The notes below the pieces were generated by a model. It had not been told where the DNA came from. It made no database searches and worked only from the letters and a program-made list of their open reading frames with translations. A DNA stretch of 63,917 bases, counting the filler, from Candidatus Rokuibacteriota bacterium (lineage in GTDB: Bacteria > JAUVQV01 > DATDCY01), in the NCBI GenBank assembly GCA_031406795.1. It is 11 parts of 11 records of this genome, joined end to end, with 100 filler letters (N's around TTAATTAATTAA, not from the genome) between each part and the next. Parts side by side here need not be neighbours in the genome. Positions count along the whole stretch, not along the records: positions 46,777 to 50,760 come from JANOHV010000067.1; 10 more parts are not named here. The stretch is one strand, 5' to 3'. This document shows positions 46,677-60,179 of this stretch, piece by piece (the stretch's first letter is position 1; every line of letters begins with the position of its first letter). The translations under genes and the position numbers were made by a program.

Positions 46677-46980
46677 NNNNNNNNNNNNNNNNNNNNNNNN
46701 NNNNNNNNNNNNNNNNNNNNTTAATTAATTAANNNNNNNNNNNNNNNNNNNNNNNNNNNNNNNNNNNNNNNNNNNNGAGCTTCCAGTCCGGCAATTCAAG
46801 TTCCGTGTCGACCACGAGGGGCAACAGTTCTGGAGTGATCTGATCTCGGTGGAGGAGACGGGCACACAACGCGTGAGCGTCGGCGTCGCGCCCTGAAGCG
46901 GAGGCTGAGCGCCAAGCAGGTGCCGGGGCGGACGCGCCGCCGAACCGCGATCGCGCAGGGCGCGCGCCCGGGAATCCCCC

Positions 46981-47652
46981 CTACCCCTCGGGCCGTCGCA
47001 GCAGCCGGGCGAGGGCCGCGGCCTGGCCGGTGCGCACGACCGCGATCACCTCGTCCCCGGGCAGCAGCACCGTGTCGCCCCGCGGGGCCAGCACCTCTCC
47101 TCCGCGCACGATGGCGGCGAGCGTGCAACCCGGCGGGATCGCCAGACCCTGCACGGGCCTCCCCGCCGCGGGTGCGCCCTCCTCGATCCGCTCCTCGGCG
47201 AGGCTGACCTCGCCGCGGCGCAGTTTGACCAGGATCGTCATGTCGCCGAGCGACATCTCCTCGGCGATCAGCTTGGCCATCAGGTCGGCCTGGTTGAGGA
47301 CCACGTCCACCCCCATCGCCGGCGTGAAGAGCCAGGCGTTACGCGGGTTGTTCACGCGGGCGATCACCCGCGGGACCGAGAACTCGGAGCGCGCCATGGT
47401 CGCCACGACGAGGTTGTCCTCGTCGGCGCCGGTCACGACGGCGACGACCTGCGCCTCGCGGATGCCGGCGGCGATGAGCACTTTCGGGTCGGCCCCGTCG
47501 CCCGCCACCACGGCTGCCGCCGGCAGCTCGAGGCGCAGCTTGACGACGGTCTCGTCCCGGCTCTCCACGACCCGCACCTGGTGCCCGCCGGCGAGCAGCA
47601 GCCCGGCCAGGTGCGACCCGGTCCGTCCCCCCCCCACGATGACGACGTTCAT
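46981..47652 (-). CDS. trkA: TrkA-family RCK protein (second copy)
   Basis: VVIVGGGRTG, VTGADEDNL and ARVNNPRN motifs; TrkA-C domain. Confidence 0.92.
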   Translation of the reverse strand: MNVVIVGGGRTGSHLAGLLLAGGHQVRVVESRDETVVKLRLELPAAAVVAGDGADPKVLIAAGIREAQVVAVVTGADEDNLVVATMARSEFSVPRVIARVNNPRNAWLFTPAMGVDVVLNQADLMAKLIAEEMSLGDMTILVKLRRGEVSLAEERIEEGAPAAGRPVQGLAIPPGCTLAAIVRGGEVLAPRGDTVLLPGDEVIAVVRTGQAAALARLLRRPEG

Positions 47653-47653
47653 C

Positions 47654-48316
47654 TCACTCCCCTCCCTGGCGCAGCCCGAGCAGGTGCTCGAGTCGTCCGC
47701 GCGCGTGCGCCATCACGGCGATGACCGCCAGATCGCCCTGCTGGAAGACCGTCTCGCGCGCGGGCAGCAGCGCCGCCTCTTTGCGCAGGATGGCCGTGAC
47801 GCTGATCGCGCCGGGCACGCTGACGTGCCCCACGTCGCGGCCGACCCAGTGGCTGGGCACCTCGTGCTCGACGAGCGAGAGCGTCCCCGTGCCGATGCTG
47901 CGGATCACGTTGAGCTCGCCGTGCACCAGCAGCTGCTGGACCCGGCTCGCCCCCCAGGCGGTCGTCGACACCGTCTGGAGCCCGAGCCGCGCGTAGACCT
48001 CGGCGCGGCGGGGGTCGTAGACGCGCGCGACGACCTTCGGCACGCGGAAGATGGTGCGCGCGATCCGCGCCGTGAGGATGTTGGCGTTGTCCCCGGAGGT
48101 CAGCGCGGCCAGCGCATCGCTGCGCTCGATGCCGGCGCGCAGCAGCACCTCGCGGTCGAAGCCGACCCCTTCGACCGTGGCCCCGGCAAAGCCGGCGCCG
48201 AGGCGCTCGAAGGCGCGGCGGTCGCGGTCGACCACGGTCACCTCCCGGCCTTCCCGGGCGAGCGCGAGCGCGAGCTCCGCCCCCATGCGGCCGCAGCCCA
48301 CGACGATCACTTTCAT
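47654..48316 (-). CDS. trkA: TrkA-family RCK protein (first copy)
   Basis: MKVIVVGCGRMG, TSGDNAN and ARVYDPRRAE motifs. ATG overlaps the ATPase stop. Confidence 0.92.
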   Translation of the reverse strand: MKVIVVGCGRMGAELALALAREGREVTVVDRDRRAFERLGAGFAGATVEGVGFDREVLLRAGIERSDALAALTSGDNANILTARIARTIFRVPKVVARVYDPRRAEVYARLGLQTVSTTAWGASRVQQLLVHGELNVIRSIGTGTLSLVEHEVPSHWVGRDVGHVSVPGAISVTAILRKEAALLPARETVFQQGDLAVIAVMAHARGRLEHLLGLRQGGE

Positions 48317-50760
48317 GGCGTCCCCCTCCCGATGTTCCGCGTCTCGGCGCGGAACCATGTGGTGGCAAATCTCGACGGTGGTTCCTTCGCCGGTGCTTGC
48401 GATTGGTGAACGGTATTCGCGCCCGCTCCCTTTGGCGGCAGGCCGCCATCTGGTCCTCGTGCGGCCCGCCGCTCCCGCCGGCGAACGAAGGCCTTGCGGC
48501 CCTCCTCGGCAAAGAGCATGATCGGCGGATAGAGCATCAGGAACAGCCAGTACTTCAGGGGCAGCGGCCCCTCCTCGAACAGCCTGCGCAGCGGCGGCAC
48601 GTAGATCAGCGCCGCCATGAGCGCCAGCTCCGCGGCGAAACCCGCCAGCAGCAGGCGGTTGCTCCAGAACCCGACCGTGAAGACCGAGCTGCGCTCCGTG
48701 CGGCAGGCGTAGGCGTTGCCGATCTGGCTCGCGACCACGCCGGCGTGGAACATGCTCGTCGCCGCCACGTAGACCAGGCCCTCCTTCGACAGCAGGCGCT
48801 CGTCGTAAGGGAGCAGATCCGGGCGCGGCAGGTGCAGCAGGTCGCGGTACCCCATCGTCCAGTAGAAGAAGAAAAAGCCGGCGAAACAAAGCAGCGTCTG
48901 GATCGAGCCGAGCCAGAGCAGCGAGCGCAGGATGAGCGGGCGGTTGACGAGCCGCTCGCGGGGGTTGCGCGGCGGTCGGTCCATGAGGCCGGGCTCGGGC
49001 TTTTCCGTCCCGAGCGCGAGCGCCGGCAGGATGTCCGTGCCGAGGTCGACGGCGAGGATCTGCATCACGGGCAGCGCGAGCGGGACGTTGAAGAGAATCT
49101 GCAGGATGAAGGGCCAGGCCTCCGGGGTGTTGCTGGTGAAGATGTAGGTCGTGAACTTGCGGATGTTGGCGTAGACGGCGCGCCCCTCCTCGATGGCGCT
49201 GACGATCGAGGCGAAGTTGTCGTCGAGCAGGATCATCGGGGCCGCCTCCTTGGCCACGTCCGTGCCCGCGATGCCCATCGCGATGCCGATGTCCGCCTTG
49301 CGCAGCGCGGGGGCGTCGTTCACCCCGTCGCCCGTGACGGCGACGACCTCGCCGAGCGCCTGCAGCGCCGTCACGACGCGCAGCTTGTGCTCCGGCGCCA
49401 CCCGCGCGAAGACCGCCTCTCCGCGCAGGACCTCCGCGAGGGCCTCGTCGGTCATCGCGTCCAGGTCCTGCCCGGTCACGATGCGCGCCCCCTCCCCGAC
49501 GATGCCCACGCGGCGCGCGATGGAGGCGGCCGTCAGGCCGTAGTCGCCGGTGACCATCGTGACGCGGATGCCGGCGCGCCGGCAGGTGAGCACCGCCGCG
49601 GCGACCTCGGGGCGCGGCGGGTCCATCATCGCCACCAGCCCGAGAAACGTGAGTTCGCTCTCCACCCATGCGGCGGTGGTCAGCTCCGGGCGGGGCGGGA
49701 GGGTGCGCCGGGCGATCGCGAGAACGCGCAGGGCGCCGCGGGCGTATTCGTCGTTCACGGCGAGGATGCGGGAGCGCGCCTCCGCGTCGAGCGGCGTCTC
49801 CTTCCCGTCGGCAAGAAGCGCGGTGCACAGCTCGAGGACCTCGCGCGGCGCCCCCTTGACGTAGGCGACCTCGCCGCCGCGCCCGGCGTGCACCGTGCTC
49901 ATGCGCTTGCGCCGTGAGTCGAACGGCAACTCGCGCGTGCGGGGAAGCGCCCCGGCGAGCGCCGCCTCGTCGATGCCGCCCTTGGCCGCGGCGACCAGCA
50001 GCGCGGCCTCCGTCGGATCGCCGAGGATCGACCAGCCGCGTCCCTCGCGCGGGGGCAGCAGCCGCGCGTTGTTGCAGAGCGCCGCCCCCGAGAGCAGCTC
50101 GCGCAAGTCCGCTTTCGCATCGTCGGCGGGACCCTCCGCGAGACGGAATTCCCCCGCCGGGTCGTAGCCGCCGCCGCTCGCGCTCCAGCGCCGGCCGGCC
50201 GTCCAGGCCTCGCGCACCGTCATCTCGTTCTGCGTCAGGGTCCCGGTCTTGTCCGTGCAGATCACCGTGCAGGCGCCGAGGGTCTCGACCGCCGAGAGCT
50301 TCTTGATCAGCGCGTTGCGCCGCGCCATGCGCTGGACGCCCATCGCGAGCGCGAGCGTGACGGTGGGCAGCAGCCCCTCGGGCACGAACGCGACCACCAT
50401 CCCCACCGCGAAGATGAAGCCGACCGCGAGCGGGCGCCCCGCCAGGGTGACGGAGATGACGAAGAACACGACCCCGATCGACACGGCGAGCAGGGTGACG
50501 ACCTTCGTCAGGCGGTTGACCTCCTTCTGCAGGGGCGAGAGCTCGTCGGCGACACTCTGGGTCAGCAGCGCGATCGTGCCGAAGGCGGTGCCCATGCCGG
50601 TGGCGAAGACCACGGCGCGGCCCGTGCCCGAGGCGACCGCGGTTCCGGCGAAAACCAGGTTCGGGCGCTCGGTCGGCGGCAGATCCCCGCGTTCGGAGGC
50701 TTCCTCCGTGCGGGGGGCGGGCATCGACTCGCCCGTGAGCGTCGAGAGGTTGACCCGCAG
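48313..50760 (-). CDS. P-type II cation-transporting ATPase, Na,K-ATPase-like (5'-truncated)
   Basis: TGES, VPEGL, DKTGTLT, GDGVNDAPAL, YIFTSNTPE and VDLGTD motifs. Confidence 0.92.
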   Translation of the reverse strand: MRVNLSTLTGESMPAPRTEEASERGDLPPTERPNLVFAGTAVASGTGRAVVFATGMGTAFGTIALLTQSVADELSPLQKEVNRLTKVVTLLAVSIGVVFFVISVTLAGRPLAVGFIFAVGMVVAFVPEGLLPTVTLALAMGVQRMARRNALIKKLSAVETLGACTVICTDKTGTLTQNEMTVREAWTAGRRWSASGGGYDPAGEFRLAEGPADDAKADLRELLSGAALCNNARLLPPREGRGWSILGDPTEAALLVAAAKGGIDEAALAGALPRTRELPFDSRRKRMSTVHAGRGGEVAYVKGAPREVLELCTALLADGKETPLDAEARSRILAVNDEYARGALRVLAIARRTLPPRPELTTAAWVESELTFLGLVAMMDPPRPEVAAAVLTCRRAGIRVTMVTGDYGLTAASIARRVGIVGEGARIVTGQDLDAMTDEALAEVLRGEAVFARVAPEHKLRVVTALQALGEVVAVTGDGVNDAPALRKADIGIAMGIAGTDVAKEAAPMILLDDNFASIVSAIEEGRAVYANIRKFTTYIFTSNTPEAWPFILQILFNVPLALPVMQILAVDLGTDILPALALGTEKPEPGLMDRPPRNPRERLVNRPLILRSLLWLGSIQTLLCFAGFFFFYWTMGYRDLLHLPRPDLLPYDERLLSKEGLVYVAATSMFHAGVVASQIGNAYACRTERSSVFTVGFWSNRLLLAGFAAELALMAALIYVPPLRRLFEEGPLPLKYWLFLMLYPPIMLFAEEGRKAFVRRRERRAARGPDGGLPPKGAGANTVHQSQAPAKEPPSRFATTWFRAETRNIGRGTP

Positions 50761-50861
50761 NNNNNNNNNNNNNNNNNNNNNNNNNNNNNNNNNNNNNNNN
50801 NNNNTTAATTAATTAANNNNNNNNNNNNNNNNNNNNNNNNNNNNNNNNNNNNNNNNNNNNG

Positions 50862-51032
50862 TTCGACTACGAGTGGGCCTCCCGGCGGATCGTCAATCTC
50901 TACAAGTCCTGGCACGAGCAGCTCGTGGACATCATGGTCCGCTTCGGCGTCGCCACCGTCCACGAGATGGTCGGGCGCATCGACCTGCTGCACCACGTCG
51001 ACTATTCCAATCAGCGGGAGGGCGGGCAGTGA
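50862..51032 (+). CDS. C-terminus of the glutamate synthase FMN subunit begun at 24663
   Basis: FDYEWASRRIVNLYKSWHEQLVDIMVRFGVATVHEMVGRIDLL. Begins GTTCGA, matching 26013-26018. Confidence 0.85.
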   Translation, partial: FDYEWASRRIVNLYKSWHEQLVDIMVRFGVATVHEMVGRIDLLHHVDYSNQREGGQ

Positions 51033-53740
51033 GCACCAACGCGTTGGAGACCATCCGCAGGATCGTCGCGTCGCGCGAGCGGCTGTACACCGGCATGCCG
51101 GCGACCTTCCTGGAGAAGGCCGAGGAAGAGGGGGGCTGCGGCGTCACCGGCTTCGCCTGCACGATCCCGGTGGCCGGGCGGCACATCTTCACGCCCTCAA
51201 AGCAGATGCACAACCGCGGCAACGGCAAGGGCGGCGGGATCGCGGCGGTCGGCTTCGACCCCGACCAGCTCGGCATTTCCCGCGAGGTGCTCGAGTCGCA
51301 CTATTGCCTGCAGATCGCGGCGCTCGACCCGGAGTGCATCGAGGAGCTGGCCGCCAAGCACATCCGCCCGGTCTTCGACATCGCCGCCGAGTCCAAGCTC
51401 AAGACCGTCAAGAACTGGCAGGAGCTGCCGAGCCTCGAGGTGCGCCCGCCGGACATCTTCCGCTACTTCGTCCGGATCAAGCCCGAGGCGCTCGACGCGT
51501 TCATAGCGGCTGCCGGCCTCGAGCTGATGGACCGCGAGAAGGCCGAGGACGAGTTCGTCTACCAGAACTCGCTGAAACTCAACGCGGAGTACTACGCCTC
51601 GCTCGGCGAGAAGAAAGCCTTCGTCGTCTCGCAGGGGCGCAACATGCTGGTGCTCAAGATCGTCGGCTACGCCGAGGACGTCGTGCGCTACTACTGCATG
51701 GACGACTTCAAGGCGCACGTCTGGATCGCGCACCAGCGCTTCCCGACCAAGGGGCGCGTCTGGCACCCGGGCGGCGCGCACCCGTTCGCGGGGCTCGACG
51801 ACGCGCTGGTGCACAACGGGGACTTCGCCAACTACCAGTCAATGGTCGACTACCTGAAGCAGCGCGGCCTGCGCACGATGTTCCTGACCGACACCGAAGT
51901 GGCGATCCTCGTTTTCGACTACCTCAGCCGCGTGCACAACTACCCGCTCGAGTACATCATCGAGGCGCTGGCGCCGACCACCGAGATGGACTTCGACCAG
52001 CTGCCCAAGGCGAAGCAGGAAATCTACCGCAAGATCCAGGTCGCGCACATGCACGGATCCCCCGACGGGCCGTGGTTCTTCATCATCGCGCGCAACAAGC
52101 AGTACGAGCGCGAGTTCCAGCTGCTCGGGATCACCGACACCGCGATGCTGCGGCCGCAGGTCTTCGCGGTTCAGAACGGCGAGGTTCAGATCGGCCTGAT
52201 CTGCTCGGAGAAGCAGGCGATCGACGCGACGCTCAAGTCCCTGGCGGCCGAGGACCCGCGCTTTTGCACCGTGGCCGACAAGTACTGGAACGCCAGAGGC
52301 GGCAGCAGCAGCAACGGCGGCTCGTTCATCTTCAGCATCAAGGACGACCCGAACAGTCCGACCGGCAAGACGCTGACCTGCGAGGACAAGTTCGGCAACC
52401 CGGTCACGACCCCCGAGGGGCAGACGCACTGCGACGTGTCCTTGCCGGCCGCACGGGTGGGGACAGATCTGAAATCTGTCCCCAAAGGCGACATCGCCGC
52501 CGCCGACATCGCGGAGCACCTGCAGGACCGAACCGTCGGCAAGCTCGCCGCCATCGCGCTGAAAAAACTCAAGGCCTGGGACTACGACGCGCTGCGCCGC
52601 TTCTGCAACGACCTGGTCGCGGCGGCGAACGCCAAGGACGCGCTGCGCGAGCCGGCGATCGCCACGCTGACCAAGCTGATCGACACCCCCTGCCACACCG
52701 GCGAGAAGAAGCGCTCCTCGGTGCTGCAGATCCTGCACATCGCGCTGCACGAGATCTTCAACGCGCTGTCGCCGATCGAGTCCACCGTCAAGAGCACCTA
52801 CAAGCGCATCGCGTGGAAGAACCGCAAGAAGTTGCGCAAGCCGGCCAAGGGCGAGCAGACGCTCGTCATCGACGCCGACGGCTTCGAGCCGGAGCTGGAA
52901 GACCGCGACTCCAAGCTGATGGTCGACGGCTTTCGGCTCGGCTGGAAGAACTTCATCGCGTACAACCTGGTCGGGCAGCGCTTCCACGGGGTCGGGCTCG
53001 GGCCGGACACCGTTGGCGTGCGCATCGATCTCTACGACAGCTCCGGCGACTACGAGGCCTCCGGCATCGACGGGCTGGAGATGCACATCCACGGCAACGC
53101 GCAGGACCAGCTCGGCCAGATCATGAAGGCCGGCAAGCTGGTCGTGCACGGCGACGTCGGTCAGACCTTCATGTACGGCGCCAAGGGGGGCGAGGTCTAC
53201 ATCCGGGGCAACGCCGCCGGCCGCCCACTGATCAATGCCGTCGGCAAGCCGCGCGTGGTCATCAACGGCACCTGCCTCGACTACCTCGCCGAGTCGTTCA
53301 TGGCCGGCAACCCGCTCGAGGGGGGCGGTTTCGTGATCCTCAACGGCCTGCAGTTCGACGACTTCGGCGGGTACAGCCCGCGCAAGCGCCCCTTCCCGGG
53401 GAGCAATCTCTTCTCGCTGGCGTCCGGCGGCGCGATCTACATCCGCGACCCCGAGCACAAGACCGTGGGCGAACAGCTCAACGGCGGCCACTTCCACCCG
53501 CTGGCCGACGCCGACTGGGCGCTGATCAAGCCCTACCTCGTCGAGAACGAGAAGCTCTTCGGCATCAAGGTCGACGACCTGCTGACGCATAACGGCAAGA
53601 AGCTCGCGCCCGCCGAGGTGTTCCGCAAAGTCGGCGCGATGAAGCCCGCCGAGGCGGTGAAGATCATCGCCGACGATGACGTGAACCTGGGGATGATCTC
53701 GAGCGTCGGCGGGAAGAAGCGCAAGAAGGGCGCTGCATAG
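51029..53740 (+). CDS. Glutamate synthase amidotransferase (Ntn GATase) plus GXGXG domain fusion (GltB1/GltB3-like)
   Basis: Propeptide then EEGGCGV; IAHQRFPT, AHPF and VHNGDFANY; C-terminal HGDVGQTFMYGAKGG repeats. Confidence 0.88.
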   Translation: MSTNALETIRRIVASRERLYTGMPATFLEKAEEEGGCGVTGFACTIPVAGRHIFTPSKQMHNRGNGKGGGIAAVGFDPDQLGISREVLESHYCLQIAALDPECIEELAAKHIRPVFDIAAESKLKTVKNWQELPSLEVRPPDIFRYFVRIKPEALDAFIAAAGLELMDREKAEDEFVYQNSLKLNAEYYASLGEKKAFVVSQGRNMLVLKIVGYAEDVVRYYCMDDFKAHVWIAHQRFPTKGRVWHPGGAHPFAGLDDALVHNGDFANYQSMVDYLKQRGLRTMFLTDTEVAILVFDYLSRVHNYPLEYIIEALAPTTEMDFDQLPKAKQEIYRKIQVAHMHGSPDGPWFFIIARNKQYEREFQLLGITDTAMLRPQVFAVQNGEVQIGLICSEKQAIDATLKSLAAEDPRFCTVADKYWNARGGSSSNGGSFIFSIKDDPNSPTGKTLTCEDKFGNPVTTPEGQTHCDVSLPAARVGTDLKSVPKGDIAAADIAEHLQDRTVGKLAAIALKKLKAWDYDALRRFCNDLVAAANAKDALREPAIATLTKLIDTPCHTGEKKRSSVLQILHIALHEIFNALSPIESTVKSTYKRIAWKNRKKLRKPAKGEQTLVIDADGFEPELEDRDSKLMVDGFRLGWKNFIAYNLVGQRFHGVGLGPDTVGVRIDLYDSSGDYEASGIDGLEMHIHGNAQDQLGQIMKAGKLVVHGDVGQTFMYGAKGGEVYIRGNAAGRPLINAVGKPRVVINGTCLDYLAESFMAGNPLEGGGFVILNGLQFDDFGGYSPRKRPFPGSNLFSLASGGAIYIRDPEHKTVGEQLNGGHFHPLADADWALIKPYLVENEKLFGIKVDDLLTHNGKKLAPAEVFRKVGAMKPAEAVKIIADDDVNLGMISSVGGKKRKKGAA
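52459..52483. repeat. REP palindrome embedded in-frame in the CDS
   Basis: GGGGACAGATCTGAAATCTGTCCCC, translated as GTDLKSVP. Second copy at 53758-53781. Confidence 0.75.
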
Positions 53741-55988: not shown

Positions 55989-56987
55989 ATGCACATCCGG
56001 ACGTTCGGTGTGGCCGTCCTGGCCGGCATCCTGCTCTTCTCCCCGGCCCTGGCGGCCGAGGCGGATCGACTCCGGGGCGATCCGTTCTCCGATCCGGCCG
56101 CCACGTTCCCAATGCCCGCAGACTGGATGCTCAAGCCGATCAAGTACGAGGCGTGGTCCGGTAAGGCCGACCTGACCGTCACGCTCGAGCAGGACGTCTA
56201 TCAGATCCTTCTCCCGCTCATCCGCGCCTACGGGAAGGAGAAGGGGATCACGATCGCCGTCCAGGAGGGGACCTGCGGCATATCGGCCGGCGCTCTTTCG
56301 CGCAGAGCGGTCGACATCGGCGGTTTCTGCTGCCCCCCCGGGCGGGAGGACCGGCTGCCCGGGTTGCGGTTCCACACCCTGGGGATCGTGGCGAAAGCCA
56401 TTCTCGTTCACCCGGAGAATCCGCTGAGCAATCTCTCCCTGCAGCAGGCGCGGGAGATCTTCGGCGGGAAGGTCTCCCGCTGGTCGGAGGTGAAGATGCC
56501 GGGAGGCAAGACGGGGTCGGAGCGGCCCATCCGGGCCGTCGCCCGGTTCCACTGCCCGACGCGCCCCGGGCACTGGCGGCTCCTGCTGGACAACGAGGAC
56601 CTCTTCAGCCTGAGGATCAACGAGGTGCGGACGATCTCCGACATGGTCTCGCAGGTCGCGGGCAGTCCGGATGCCATCGGCTGGGAAGTCATGGGGATGG
56701 CCGAGCAGTATCGCAACCTCGGACGCGTCAAGGCCTTGATGATCGACGGGTTCGCTCCCACCGACATTCAGGCGCTGGTGACCGGGAAGTACCCGATCTA
56801 CCGCACCTATAACATCACCACCTGGGAAGGTCAGAGGATCGCGAGCGCTCATGCCGCCGGGCTCGTGGCGTATCTGAACAAGGAGGTCGTGAAGATCGAA
56901 CCCCGCTACGGCTTCGCGCCCGCGGCGCGTCTGCGGGAGGCCGGTTGGCGCTTCAGCGGGGATGAGCTAATCGGCGAGCCGAGGTAG
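55989..56987 (+). CDS. Periplasmic binding protein (PstS/PBP2-like)
   Basis: AGGAGG RBS, signal peptide, VHPENPLSNLS...IFGGKVSRWSEV and GKYPIYR. Confidence 0.75.
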   Translation: MHIRTFGVAVLAGILLFSPALAAEADRLRGDPFSDPAATFPMPADWMLKPIKYEAWSGKADLTVTLEQDVYQILLPLIRAYGKEKGITIAVQEGTCGISAGALSRRAVDIGGFCCPPGREDRLPGLRFHTLGIVAKAILVHPENPLSNLSLQQAREIFGGKVSRWSEVKMPGGKTGSERPIRAVARFHCPTRPGHWRLLLDNEDLFSLRINEVRTISDMVSQVAGSPDAIGWEVMGMAEQYRNLGRVKALMIDGFAPTDIQALVTGKYPIYRTYNITTWEGQRIASAHAAGLVAYLNKEVVKIEPRYGFAPAARLREAGWRFSGDELIGEPR

Positions 56988-56991
56988 AGCC

Positions 56992-59900
56992 ATGCTCAAA
57001 CGCCTGCCGCTGATGGTCAAGATGCTGCTGGTCACCGTGCTGGCGGCGTCCGCCATTTTCGCGGGGCTGGACTCCTTCCAGGCCAGGCGTCTGCGCGCGA
57101 CGCTCTACGGCCAGCTGGAGCTGCGGCTCCAGGAGCAGGCGCGCGAGGATCGTCTGAGGTTTCACAGCTACGTGAACGCCCACCGGCAGGCGGTGAAGCT
57201 GCTGGCCTCCCAGAGGAACTTCGTGGAGTACCTCGAGACGCCCGCCTGGGTCGGGGGGGATCCCGGACGGATCGTCTTTCATCGCGAGATTCCCCCCTGG
57301 TTGCCCAAGCCCTCGGTCCTCCGGGCCTTCGTCACCGTCCCGTTCGCGATGCTTCTCGATCCCGAGGGACGGGTGCGGGAAGTTTTCCTGAATCATCCGG
57401 ACCCCCCTCCCGCTTCGCTGCTCAAACCCTCCGACCTGCTGCGCACGCTCAGCCACAACCAGAGCATCATGACCGAGCTCGACGACGCGCCCTTTCTCGT
57501 CACCTCGGAGATGGTCGAGACGGGAGGACGGCTGAGTGCCGAGCTCATGGTCGCCTCGCCGCTCGACGAGGACTTCCTGATCCGCTCGCAGGGCGCCGTC
57601 GAAGAGCCGCGCCTCGTGGCGCTGCTCCGGGGGGATCCGGCGAAAATCGTCGCCAGCAGCAACCAGACCGCGCTGCCCGCGGGAGCCCCGGCGGAGTCGG
57701 CGCAGGGCTCCTACCTGCTGACCGGAAAGTCGTTCTTCGACCTGGCCTCCTCGGACCTCGTGATGATGTTCGCGTCGTTCATCTCCACCGCCGAGGTCGA
57801 CGCGGTGATGCGCTCCATCCTCGCCGAGGGGCGCCAGGGGCGCGCGCTGACGGCACTGCCGCTGATCCTGGTCTCGGCGCTGATCGTCTTCTGGATCACC
57901 CTGCACATCCGGACCCTCTCCCGGGGGATCGAAGAGTTCTCGAGTACCGTGCTCGGCGCGGAGCCCGGGGGGGCCGCGGCAGGAGACGAGCTGCACGTCA
58001 TCGAGAGTCGGTTCCGGAACCTGACCGACGAGGTGGTCGCGGCGCGGGAGACCCTCAGGCGCGAGGCCGAGGAGAAGCTCGCGCTGCAGGCCCGGGCGAT
58101 CGTCGCCGAGCGCCAGGAGCAGGAGCTCAAGCTGCTGCAGGCGCTCAAGGTCTCGGAGGAGAACTACCACGCGATCTTCGATTCCGCGAACGACGCGATC
58201 TTCGTCTTCGACGCCGACACCGGGCTCATCCTCGACGCGAACGTCAAGGCCGGCCAGCTCCTCGGTCTGCCGCGGCAGAGCATCATCGGGATGCACTACT
58301 CCCGGATGCACCCGCCCGCGGAGGCGGAGCAGTGCCTCAAGATCTTCCAGCGGGCCGTCCAGCAGGCGAGCACGATCTCCAGCGACATCTGCGTGCTGCG
58401 CTCCGACGGCACCACGATGCCCGTCGAGATCAGCACGAGCGTCATCGGGCGCGACGGCAAGCGGATCGCGCTGGGGATCTTCCGGGACATCACCGAGCGC
58501 CGGCGGGCCGAGGCCGCGCTCGAGGAGGAGATGAACCGGGCGCAGCGCTACCTGGACATCGCGGAAGTCATCATCGTGGCGATCGGCACCGACGAAAAGG
58601 TGCGGTTGATCAACCGCGCCGGCAGCCGGATTCTCGGCCTCGAGGAGCGGCAGATCGTCGGTCGGAACATGTTCGAGAACTTCATCCCGGAGCGGTTGCG
58701 CGTCGAAGCGCATGCGATCTTCCGCCGGCTGCTCTCGGGGGAGAGCGGCGCGGCCGAGTCCTTCGAGTTTCCGGTGCTCGCGAAATCCCGCGAGGAGCGG
58801 ATGATCGCCTGGCACAACGCGCTCGTGCGGGACGAGGAGGGAAGCGTCGTCGCGCTGCTCAGCTCCGGCGAGGACATCACCGAGCGCAAGCACGCCGAGG
58901 AGCAGGCGCGTTCGCGATTCCGGCAGCTCACGGCGCTGCACAGCATCGATATGATTATCAACTCGAGCCTGGATCTGCACGTGACGCTCAAGGGATTCAT
59001 CGGTCACGTCATCGCCCAGATGGGCGTGGACGCCGCCGATGTGCTGTTGCTCGATCCGTTCACGCAGACCCTGGAATTCGCCGAGGGGAGCGGGTTTCGC
59101 ACCGAGGGGATCAGGAAATCCCGCCTGCGCCTCGGCGAGGGCATCGCCGGGATCGCCGCGCTGGAGCACCGGAGCATCCAGATCGAGAACCTTCTCGATC
59201 CCGCCAGCGGATTCGTGCGCTCGGGGCTGCTCGCGGGCGAAGGCTTCCTGGCCTACTACGCCGAGCCGCTGGTGGCCAAGGGGCAGATCAAGGGCGTGCT
59301 GGAGATCCTGCACCGCTCGCCGCTGCCGCTGGATGAGGAACAGCGCGAATTCCTGCACGCGCTGGCGTCGCAGGCGGCGATCGCCATCGACAACGCGACG
59401 CTCTTCGACGAGCTTCAGCGCTCCAACATCGAGCTCACGCTGGCCTACGACGCCACGCTCGAGGGGTGGGCGAAAGCGCTGGATTTGCGCAACCGGGAGA
59501 CGGAGCGCCACTCCGAGCGCGTGACCGAGATGACGCTGCGCCTCGCGCGGGCCATGGGCATGGGCGATCGGGATCTGGTGCAGGTGCGCCGCGGGGCGCT
59601 GCTTCACGACATGGGCAAGATCGGCATCCCGGACAGCATCCTGCTCAAGCCCGCCCCCCTCACCGATGAGGAGCGGCAGATCATGCAGCGTCACCCGGAC
59701 GACGCGTTCGAGATGCTCCGCAAAATCGCCTATCTGCGCCCGGCCCTGGACATCCCGTACGCCCACCATGAGCGATGGGACGGGAGCGGCTACCCGCGGG
59801 GACTCAAGGGGGAGCAGATCCCGCTGCCGGCCCGGATCTTCGCCGCGGTGGACATCTGGGACGCGCTGCGCACCGCGGAGCGCCCGTACCGCACGCCGAT

Positions 59901-59994
59901 GAGCGACGAGGAGCTGCACACCCACCTGCGCTCCCTCGCCGGGACGCACCTGGACCCGAACGTGGTGGAGGCGTTTCTTAAACTGGAGTGGTGA
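56992..59994 (+). CDS. Membrane PAS-PAS-GAF-HD-GYP cyclic dinucleotide phosphodiesterase
   Basis: Two TMs, two PAS domains (RDITER, EDITERK), GAF, LLHDMGK and HHERWDGSGYPRG. Confidence 0.92.
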   Translation: MLKRLPLMVKMLLVTVLAASAIFAGLDSFQARRLRATLYGQLELRLQEQAREDRLRFHSYVNAHRQAVKLLASQRNFVEYLETPAWVGGDPGRIVFHREIPPWLPKPSVLRAFVTVPFAMLLDPEGRVREVFLNHPDPPPASLLKPSDLLRTLSHNQSIMTELDDAPFLVTSEMVETGGRLSAELMVASPLDEDFLIRSQGAVEEPRLVALLRGDPAKIVASSNQTALPAGAPAESAQGSYLLTGKSFFDLASSDLVMMFASFISTAEVDAVMRSILAEGRQGRALTALPLILVSALIVFWITLHIRTLSRGIEEFSSTVLGAEPGGAAAGDELHVIESRFRNLTDEVVAARETLRREAEEKLALQARAIVAERQEQELKLLQALKVSEENYHAIFDSANDAIFVFDADTGLILDANVKAGQLLGLPRQSIIGMHYSRMHPPAEAEQCLKIFQRAVQQASTISSDICVLRSDGTTMPVEISTSVIGRDGKRIALGIFRDITERRRAEAALEEEMNRAQRYLDIAEVIIVAIGTDEKVRLINRAGSRILGLEERQIVGRNMFENFIPERLRVEAHAIFRRLLSGESGAAESFEFPVLAKSREERMIAWHNALVRDEEGSVVALLSSGEDITERKHAEEQARSRFRQLTALHSIDMIINSSLDLHVTLKGFIGHVIAQMGVDAADVLLLDPFTQTLEFAEGSGFRTEGIRKSRLRLGEGIAGIAALEHRSIQIENLLDPASGFVRSGLLAGEGFLAYYAEPLVAKGQIKGVLEILHRSPLPLDEEQREFLHALASQAAIAIDNATLFDELQRSNIELTLAYDATLEGWAKALDLRNRETERHSERVTEMTLRLARAMGMGDRDLVQVRRGALLHDMGKIGIPDSILLKPAPLTDEERQIMQRHPDDAFEMLRKIAYLRPALDIPYAHHERWDGSGYPRGLKGEQIPLPARIFAAVDIWDALRTAERPYRTPMSDEELHTHLRSLAGTHLDPNVVEAFLKLEW

Positions 59995-60179
59995 GGTTCG
60001 CTGGGGTGCACGACAGGATTGTTGAGTGAGCACCATCGGGGGCCGCATTGATCACGCGGCGCATTTTGAGCGTCGCTCCNNNNNNNNNNNNNNNNNNNNN
60101 NNNNNNNNNNNNNNNNNNNNNNNTTAATTAATTAANNNNNNNNNNNNNNNNNNNNNNNNNNNNNNNNNNNNNNNNNNNN

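Follow-up and report, generated by a model that had tools for sequence, protein, structure and literature searches.

A conserved cassette of a P2-type ATPase and two TrkA/RCK genes, found without a TrkH/KtrB partner in Rokuibacteriota and other prokaryotes

A 63,917-base stretch of the Candidatus Rokuibacteriota assembly GCA_031406795.1 (the window) includes one contig, JANOHV010000067.1 (positions 46777–50760, 3,984 bp), that is filled by three genes on the minus strand: a P2-type cation ATPase, below called the pump, and two genes for RCK proteins, trkA1 and trkA2 (Table 1). The same cassette is kept in many bacterial phyla and in methanogens and contains no TrkH/KtrB gene; it is real, ordinary-looking and undescribed. 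Judging by sequence and gene order, we lean somewhat towards reading it as a self-contained unit, in which a monovalent-cation pump resembling the Na,K- and H,K-ATPases would be served by a dedicated two-subunit RCK regulator ("split TrkA").

Known ways of regulating P-type ATPases include autoinhibitory tails, small single-helix subunits and phosphorylation. A literature search, with subscription journals and supplements largely outside its reach, yielded no paper linking a P-type ATPase to TrkA/RCK partners, and an RCK-regulated P-type pump was not found either. This agrees with the initial annotation, made from the DNA sequence alone, which had called such a coupling not known to be characterised.

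Conservation of the cassette

The gene order was compared in two sets of 80 loci, 160 together. The genome set was collected in a scan with the pump alignment, one genome per species, and its pumps are 52–74% identical to that of the window; the metagenome set came from the reciprocal scan with the TrkA2 alignment. In the genome set, TrkA1 directly follows the ATPase in 75 of 80 loci, and TrkA2 is present as well in 71; four loci with TrkA1 alone and two with neither RCK gene end too early to be judged. At least 1,500 nt after the pump are available in 64 loci, complete genomes included, and in 61 of them the order is ATPase–TrkA1–TrkA2 on the same strand. A 4-nt overlap joins the pump gene to trkA1 in 38 of 75 loci, and the spacing of trkA1 and trkA2 is −4 to 28 nt in 68 of 70. 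The neighbourhood survey proposed in the initial annotation has thus brought out an ATPase with two trkA genes and no TrkH as a conserved, often translationally coupled unit.

By their record titles, the loci of the genome set belong to Thermotogae, Bipolaricaulota, Betaproteobacteria, Geobacteraceae, Syntrophobacterales, Desulfobacterales, Chloroflexota, Bacillota, Actinomycetota, Meiothermus and Gemmatimonadota, that is, in at least ten bacterial phylum-level groups, and eight loci belong to Methanomicrobiales archaea. The reciprocal search gives the same arrangement. TrkA1 lies upstream of TrkA2 in all 45 metagenome loci with room for it (43 accepted by the automatic filter, and L142 and L147 by inspection, as their TrkA2 open reading frame (ORF) had been called too long), and the ATPase lies upstream of the RCK pair in 23 of the 26 metagenome loci where the available stretch exceeds 3.7 kb. 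Many phyla, and methanogens, have kept the cassette with its gene order and tight spacing, and the RCK pair of this subfamily occurs mainly behind this ATPase.

The window is a chain of short contigs, and the pump gene is cut at the end of a 4-kb one, which might suggest that the adjacency arose by chance or through misassembly of a fragmented metagenome bin. However, the same gene order in 61 of 64 related, independent loci, some of them in complete genomes, shows that the adjacency is beyond chance; the reciprocal metagenome search agrees, and independent contigs of the sequencing run X1, which may be the source sample, span both gene junctions without differences. We regard this explanation as refuted, its probability being negligible.

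Pairwise identities of the pump correlate with those of TrkA1 (Mantel correlation 0.59) and TrkA2 (0.70), and none of 999 shuffles reached either value. This fits co-inheritance, but shared ancestry alone would yield the same, and the result is not used as a sign of contact. A comparison of 337 conserved pump columns found six that differ in at least two of the three orthologs lacking adjacent RCK genes, and no docking region emerged from these.

Some loci have additional pump genes around the cassette or a doubled cassette. L071 (3311–11696) contains two complete cassettes in tandem. A paralogous pump is situated just upstream of the cassette in Flexilinea (L031 and L041:4180–6982). Another P-type ATPase directly follows the RCK pair in L073 (5649–8384).

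The pump

The translated ATPase frame features TGES, FVPEGL, DKTGT, GDGVNDAP, YIFTSNTPE and VDLGTD; the motifs in transmembrane segments (TM) 4, 5 and 6 are as first read, namely VPEGL, YIFTSNTPE and VDLGTD. The Pfam domains are E1-E2_ATPase, Cation_ATPase, Hydrolase and Cation_ATPase_C. The gene is truncated at its 5' side by the contig end, and about 160 N-terminal residues, comprising TM1–2 and a part of the A domain, are absent: in tblastn, homologues of 935 and 939 aa align to the window pump only from their own residue 161, and no further piece of the gene was found in the rest of the window. With DKTGT, TGES and GDGVNDAP invariant in 63 of 63 sequences and the Cation_ATPase_C domain present, the pump is a type II P-type ATPase, the window copy lacking its N-terminus.

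The closest solved structures are those of Na,K- and H,K-ATPases (P2C; PDB 8d3u, 2zxe, 5ylu), both by sequence and by profile, and the best 36 distinct PDB sequences are all alpha subunits of these enzymes. For a full-length homologue they score 561–524 bits, against 508 for SPCA1, 500 for LMCA1 and 460 for SERCA; for the family profile the scores are 737–693 bits, against 652–630 for LMCA1, SERCA and SPCA. In the alignment to 8d3u, the VPEGL, TSN.PE and DLGTD of the pump stand opposite VPEGL, YTLTSNIPE and IDLGTD, the animal motifs quoted in the initial annotation. The residues of sites I and II are almost invariant in the family (E128, N544, D572 and D576 in 63 of 63 sequences, S543 and E547 in 62), so that the Glu of TM4, the Ser, Asn and Glu of TM5 and the two Asp of TM6 expected of a P2C cation site are all in place. 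Also shared are the Tyr that opens the TM5 motif (Y..TSN.PE), a Gln in TM8 and a DE.RK motif after TM10. Unlike the Na,K- and H,K-ATPases, the cassette pump is prokaryotic, is about 935 aa long and has two RCK gene partners; Pfam analysis of 131 immediate neighbours shows no conserved third gene that could encode the beta subunit obligatory in P2C, and a beta-like protein may be encoded elsewhere.

The subfamily models give a less definite picture. The score with the P2C (IIC) model TIGR01106 is 539 bits for the window fragment and 622–635 for four full-length members, below the cut-off of 946.1 bits. The P2A models do not reach their cut-offs either: 489–611 against 703.4 bits for TIGR01116 (SERCA) and 503–686 against 798.3 bits for TIGR01522 (PMR1). 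Judged by these sequence models, the NCBIfam assignment is ambiguous and membership in P2C is not established. Of the initial description of the pump as P2C-like, the ion-site motifs and the nearest solved relatives hold, whereas the formal family assignment is ambiguous.

This leaves room for a pump of another kind, a Ca2+ (P2A-like) or Na+-efflux ATPase, whose RCK pair would sense Ca2+ or Na+ and not K+ or energy status. The PMR1-type Ca2+ model scores 606–686 bits in full-length members, more than the IIC model in two of four; LMCA1, SERCA and SPCA are within about 45–105 bits of the P2C matches; and some RCK domains bind Ca2+ (MthK) or require cation cofactors (PMC6957272). Because the subfamily models are ambiguous and no cut-off is reached, Ca2+ or another cation is a possible substrate. 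Yet TSNxPE in TM5 and DLGTD in TM6 fit the Na,K- and H,K-ATPases rather than the Ca2+ pumps, both RCK proteins retain nucleotide-type GxGxxG motifs, and the gene context is related to K+, including KdpD/E, APC- and KimA-like carriers and a Kef-like CPA2-RCK protein. We consider a Ca2+ or Na+ pump rather unlikely.

A second distinction concerns TM8. The Asp of the QWAD motif of Na,K-ATPase is, as we assume, a part of the third Na+ site, and its replacement by Asn presumably weakens Na+ binding. The aligned residue of the window pump is Asn, and no Asp is found at this position among 62 readable sequences of the family (Asn in 51, Ala in seven, Met and Val in two each). That TM8 never has Asp here argues against a 3Na+/2K+ pump; if the assumed role holds, the family would consist of two-site pumps.

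The Na,K-ATPase-like genes of methanogens have been called uncharacterised (PMC10654040, section 7), and that section makes no mention of RCK partners. The tally of a TIGR01106 search of 201 archaeal genomes is a lower bound, as only three candidates in each genome received a score and the search passed over the cassette pump known from G001. In four archaeal genomes there is a clade of 889–913-aa ATPases (L176–L179), 41–43% identical to the homologue P0005, with motifs ANVPEGL, YILTSN(V/I)PE and IDLGTD and, again, Asn in TM8. Their IIC scores, 674–747 bits, exceed those of the cassette pumps, and by sequence the clade looks more Na,K-like than the latter.

Geomonas G003 has a second P2-type ATPase (L181:3705–8383, contig C57), 895 aa long and scoring 575 bits to the window pump, which is directly followed by a Kef-like CPA2 antiporter fused to TrkA_N and TrkA_C. 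The Kef/CPA2 antiporters with KTN/RCK domains resemble the cassette in that RCK domains control a cation transporter that is not a channel; there, however, RCK is fused to a secondary antiporter, while the cassette has two free RCK proteins and a primary pump.

The RCK pair

Both proteins are members of the RCK family. The Pfam scores for TrkA_N and TrkA_C are 89.6 and 27.0 bits in TrkA1, the C-lobe being exactly at the cut-off, and 94.5 and 55.4 bits in TrkA2; the two proteins share 34% identity. Across 63 sequences, both show the GxGxxG motif and the acidic residue after beta2 with little or no variation, and residues from about 97 to 147 of TrkA2 form a strikingly conserved stretch in the same alignment.

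The PDB sequences nearest to TrkA1 are TrkA, at 92.6 bits, and TM1088A, at 85.3 bits (TM1088B reaches 68.6); for TrkA2 they are the second half of TrkA, at 122.9 bits, and TM1088B, at 106.6 bits (TM1088A reaches 49.6). The pair resembles, member by member, TM1088A and TM1088B of Thermotoga maritima (PDB 3l4b), which are likewise encoded by two adjacent, overlapping genes. The differences are that TM1088A consists of the N-lobe only (143 aa), whereas TrkA1 of the cassette has a C-lobe, and that the partner there is a TrkH homologue: TM1088A/B are described as a two-subunit octameric ring working with TM1089 (PMC4380455). The likeness to TrkAH and KtrAB (PDB 4j9u, 4j7c) is of the same kind, with TrkA_N and TrkA_C lobes, nucleotide motifs, TrkA as the best PDB match and a free RCK regulator; the cassette, unlike these systems, has no TrkH or KtrB, also at the level of three whole genomes, and its membrane partner would be a primary pump. 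By definition it belongs neither to TrkAH/KtrAB nor to the H,K-/Na,K-ATPases.

The two subunits behave differently when the pair occurs without the ATPase. TrkA1 scores 129–168 bits in three ATPase-free pairs and 200–240 bits in 40 ATPase-linked pairs, while TrkA2 scores alike in both, 251–272 and 239–270 bits, respectively. TrkA1 may therefore be the subunit that recognises the partner, a hint drawn from three cases.

The complex of TrkA1 (residues 1–138), TrkA2 (1–147) and the ATPase (61–775) was predicted from 63-row alignments. The ipSAE values, obtained without controls, were 0.14 and 0.10 against a mark of 0.32, and this prediction is neutral as to whether the RCK proteins bind the pump.

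Search for a pore and for other potassium systems

The initial annotation saw no TrkH or KtrB gene after the pair. This is true, but beyond trkA2 just 204 bp of the contig remain, and hence the absence of a channel gene within the window says little by itself. The loci of relatives agree with it. Three TrkH seeds taken from two of the genomes matched no ORF in the 160 loci and, by tblastn, nothing in the window. Pfam analysis of the 131 immediate neighbours (73 upstream, 58 downstream) revealed no conserved family; the commonest ones are response regulators and histidine kinases with eight members each, and families outside the list have at most two. Moreover, Methanospirillum stamsii (complete genome), Flexilinea flocculi and Geomonas diazotrophica gave no PF02386 (TrkH) match when searched genome-wide, although the same search was positive in 11 of 14 control genomes. 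Thus neither the 160 loci, nor the three whole genomes, nor the window provide the TrkH/KtrB pore subunit that would make the pair a part of a Trk/Ktr system; the cassette lacks it.

The RCK pair could still work, like E. coli trkA, with a TrkH/KtrB pore or a K+ channel whose gene lies at another site, and its position next to the pump would then reflect co-expression only; after all, trkA and trkH are unlinked in some bacteria. Two Bacillota genomes with the cassette, G004 and G005, indeed have TrkH genes far from it. Each of these, however, adjoins its own TrkA gene (G005 at 1856307 and 3131916–3132667, G004 at C18:16668). TrkA and TM1088A/B, the nearest relatives of the RCK proteins, do gate TrkH (PMC4380455), but the three whole genomes without a TrkH match do have the cassette, and the adjacency of RCK genes and ATPase is near-universal in both search directions. 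We find an unlinked pore improbable. Ordinary TrkH–TrkA loci are present elsewhere in the three genomes whose pump lacks an adjacent RCK pair.

Among other potassium systems, KdpFABC with KdpD/KdpE also performs ATP-driven K+ uptake by a P-type ATPase. Genes for a KdpD-type sensor kinase (PF02702) and a response regulator adjoin the cassette in four of 80 loci (L035, L045, L063, L079), and KdpA/B in these cases are encoded elsewhere or not seen nearby. The cassette differs in having no KdpA, KdpC or KdpF and in its pump, which is of P2 type with its own ion sites and not P1A; besides, KdpA and KdpB are absent from M. stamsii, F. flocculi and G. diazotrophica (G001–G003). Taken together, the KdpD/E neighbours, the APC carriers described below, the CPA2-RCK protein and a mycobacterial TrkA pair are indirect hints at a K+ context.

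APC-type carriers as alternative or additional partners

The gene immediately before the pump, read in the same direction, codes for a membrane protein of 597–609 aa in nine of the 16 metagenome loci where the pump is complete and 1.9 kb or more precedes it, which makes a four-gene variant of the cassette. The gene was seen in L103 (3058–4884), L109, L111, L127, L134, L142, L161, L163, L164, L166 and, from the genome set, L031 (2163–3956). The protein is distantly APC-like, with 54–80 bits to the APC seeds; of four such proteins scanned, the three of 608–609 aa (L103, L111, L142) have no Pfam match at the gathering score, and that of Flexilinea (L031) matches AA_permease_2 with 33.8 bits. In the metagenome loci it could be the partner of the RCK proteins.

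The RCK pair also occurs with APC permeases in the absence of a P-type ATPase. The order permease–TrkA1–TrkA2 is found in L129 (7572–10729), L147 (7307–10693) and L180 (3269–6603, Flexilinea), where the permeases are AA_permease_2 proteins of 647–667 aa, the Flexilinea one having also a weak K_trans match, and where TrkA1 of L129 is an N-lobe only (152 aa). In L131 and L100 the RCK pair is followed by an APC permease. Since the pair also sits with APC permeases, split TrkA is a module for more than one transporter type. A similar case may be mycobacterial CeoB/CeoC, an adjacent TrkA pair described as a K+ uptake system for which TrkH is nowhere named in the text of PMC13163235, and no P-type ATPase partner is described there; by analogy with L129, L147 and L180, their partner may be an APC-type carrier.

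These loci, together with KimA-like APC genes encoded elsewhere in the genomes of Geomonas (G003) and Lachnospiraceae (G004), are the basis of the explanation in which the RCK pair regulates another K+ transporter, APC- or KimA-like, situated upstream or elsewhere, the shared operon being a K+ homeostasis regulon. An APC partner upstream was also what the initial annotation named as a refutation of its reading, and it does exist in the metagenome loci listed above; on the other hand, no APC-like gene stands by the pump in the four closest loci with upstream context (L002–L005, 67–74% identity). In the genome set, where 73 of 80 loci have an upstream neighbour, an APC-like ORF is present in the flanks of two only, both from Flexilinea (L031 and L041). 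M. stamsii and an Oscillospiraceae chromosome keep the cassette with no homologue of either APC type found by the queries used. Finally, trkA1 is coupled by ATGA to the ATPase and not to the APC gene, and TrkA1 differs between the ATPase-linked and APC-linked pairs. An APC-type carrier as the true target is unlikely; in some clades the pump may share the RCK pair with such a carrier or lose the pair to it.

Proposed mechanism

In the self-contained cassette that we favour, the pump would most likely take up K+ and export H+ or Na+. It would occlude two cations at the sites formed by the TM4 Glu, the TM5 Ser, Asn and Glu and the two TM6 Asp, and, lacking the acidic TM8 residue, would not work as a 3Na+/2K+ pump. 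TrkA1 and TrkA2 would form a hetero-oligomeric ring like that of TrkA or TM1088A/B, in which their intact GxGxxG...D/E motifs would serve to bind adenine or nicotinamide nucleotides and TrkA1 would possibly recognise the partner. The assembly would contact the pump directly and turn its E1–E2 cycle on or off in response to energy or K+ status. The stronger form of this proposal, in which split TrkA gates the Na,K-/H,K-like pump by nucleotide state and TrkA1 is an exchangeable adaptor, fitted either to the pump or to an APC-type K+ carrier, is more tentative, and we give it slightly less than an even chance.

Several observations weigh against this proposal, in addition to the PMR1-type scores, the possible other cation, the upstream APC-like genes and the KimA-like genes discussed above. 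Three of the 64 orthologous ATPases (L021, L028 and L080; two from Gloeobacterales and one from Methanothrix) have no adjacent RCK pair, and none is found within 1.5 kb of the pump in L176–L179, hence the pump can exist without the pair. The KdpD adjacency, one of the K+ hints, is confined to a single group of Bacillota. In the window itself the upstream side of the pump is cut off by the contig end.

If the RCK pair does gate the pump, this would be a new regulatory principle for primary ion pumps: RCK control would reach beyond channels and secondary carriers to include a primary pump, and the animal sodium pump would have a regulated relative in a prokaryotic K+ pump family. The cassette would provide a tractable prokaryotic model close to the Na,K- and H,K-ATPases, whose prokaryotic relatives are called uncharacterised (PMC10654040), and a K+ uptake route for organisms, among them Methanospirillum, Flexilinea and Geomonas, in which Trk/Ktr and Kdp are missing. 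The cassette is small and widespread, and its recurrence in many bacterial phyla and in methanogens suggests a possible way of switching an ATP-driven ion pump.

Gene junctions and other features of the window

The coordinates are given in Table 1. Both junctions are as initially annotated: the ATPase stop overlaps the trkA1 start within ATGA, and the trkA1 stop TGA (47656–47654) is separated by a single base from the trkA2 ATG at 47652. Each RCK gene is preceded by a putative Shine-Dalgarno-like run.

Table 1. Features of the contig at positions 46777–50760 of the window
Feature	Position	Strand	Remarks
P2-type cation ATPase (P0001)	48313..50760	-	815 codons and stop; open frame from the contig end at 50760, stop at 48313-48315
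trkA1	47654..48316	-	220-aa RCK protein; TrkA_N lobe and weak TrkA_C lobe; GCGRMG; acidic residue at the end of beta2
trkA2	46981..47652	-	223-aa RCK protein; TrkA_N and TrkA_C lobes; GGGRTG
ATGA overlap of ATPase stop and trkA1 start	48313..48316	-	ATG 48316-48314, TGA 48315-48313
Putative Shine-Dalgarno-like purine-rich run GGGAGGGGGA	48321..48330	-	4 nt before the trkA1 ATG, within the ATPase 3' end; function presumed
Putative Shine-Dalgarno-like run GGGAGGGGAG	47657..47666	-	precedes the trkA2 ATG, within the trkA1 3' end; function presumed
Non-conserved C-terminal tail of the ATPase	48320..48461	-	last ~48 codons; homologues stop aligning at 48436/48484
Tail of a convergent open frame	46777..46896	+	39 codons and stop, runs in from the contig end; putative gene

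The C-terminal tail of the pump is variable between strains, as contigs of the sequencing runs X1 and X2 carry 163 other letters in place of 140 letters here. In the closest loci L001, L002 and L004 the pump ends 157–315 nt before trkA1, and hence the ATGA overlap of the window is due to a lineage-specific extension of the frame. The X1 and X2 contigs are fragmentary and give no sequence upstream of the pump. The convergent frame at the other end of the contig would mark the end of the operon.

The promoter and terminator scan of the contig produced no promoter-like site and a single terminator-like site, within the pump gene; shuffled sequences gave no fewer. The Rfam search found no riboswitch in the window or in 11 loci from Bacillota and Actinomycetota, the latter yielding only three tRNAs.

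The window as a whole is composed of 11 contigs of 3–10 kb joined by 10 spacers, runs of N around TTAATTAATTAA (for example, 46677–46776 and 50761–50860); adjoining contigs need not be neighbours in the genome, and the genes at their ends are cut. The other contigs encode AcrB, a sigma-54 activator, a 5'-nucleotidase and the start of RecD2. At 50873–53737, on the plus strand, there is a 955-aa frame whose sole domain is GXGXG (glutamate-synthase-like). At 56956–60048, on the minus strand, a 1,031-aa open frame without a Pfam family has a 1,000-aa counterpart on the opposite strand.

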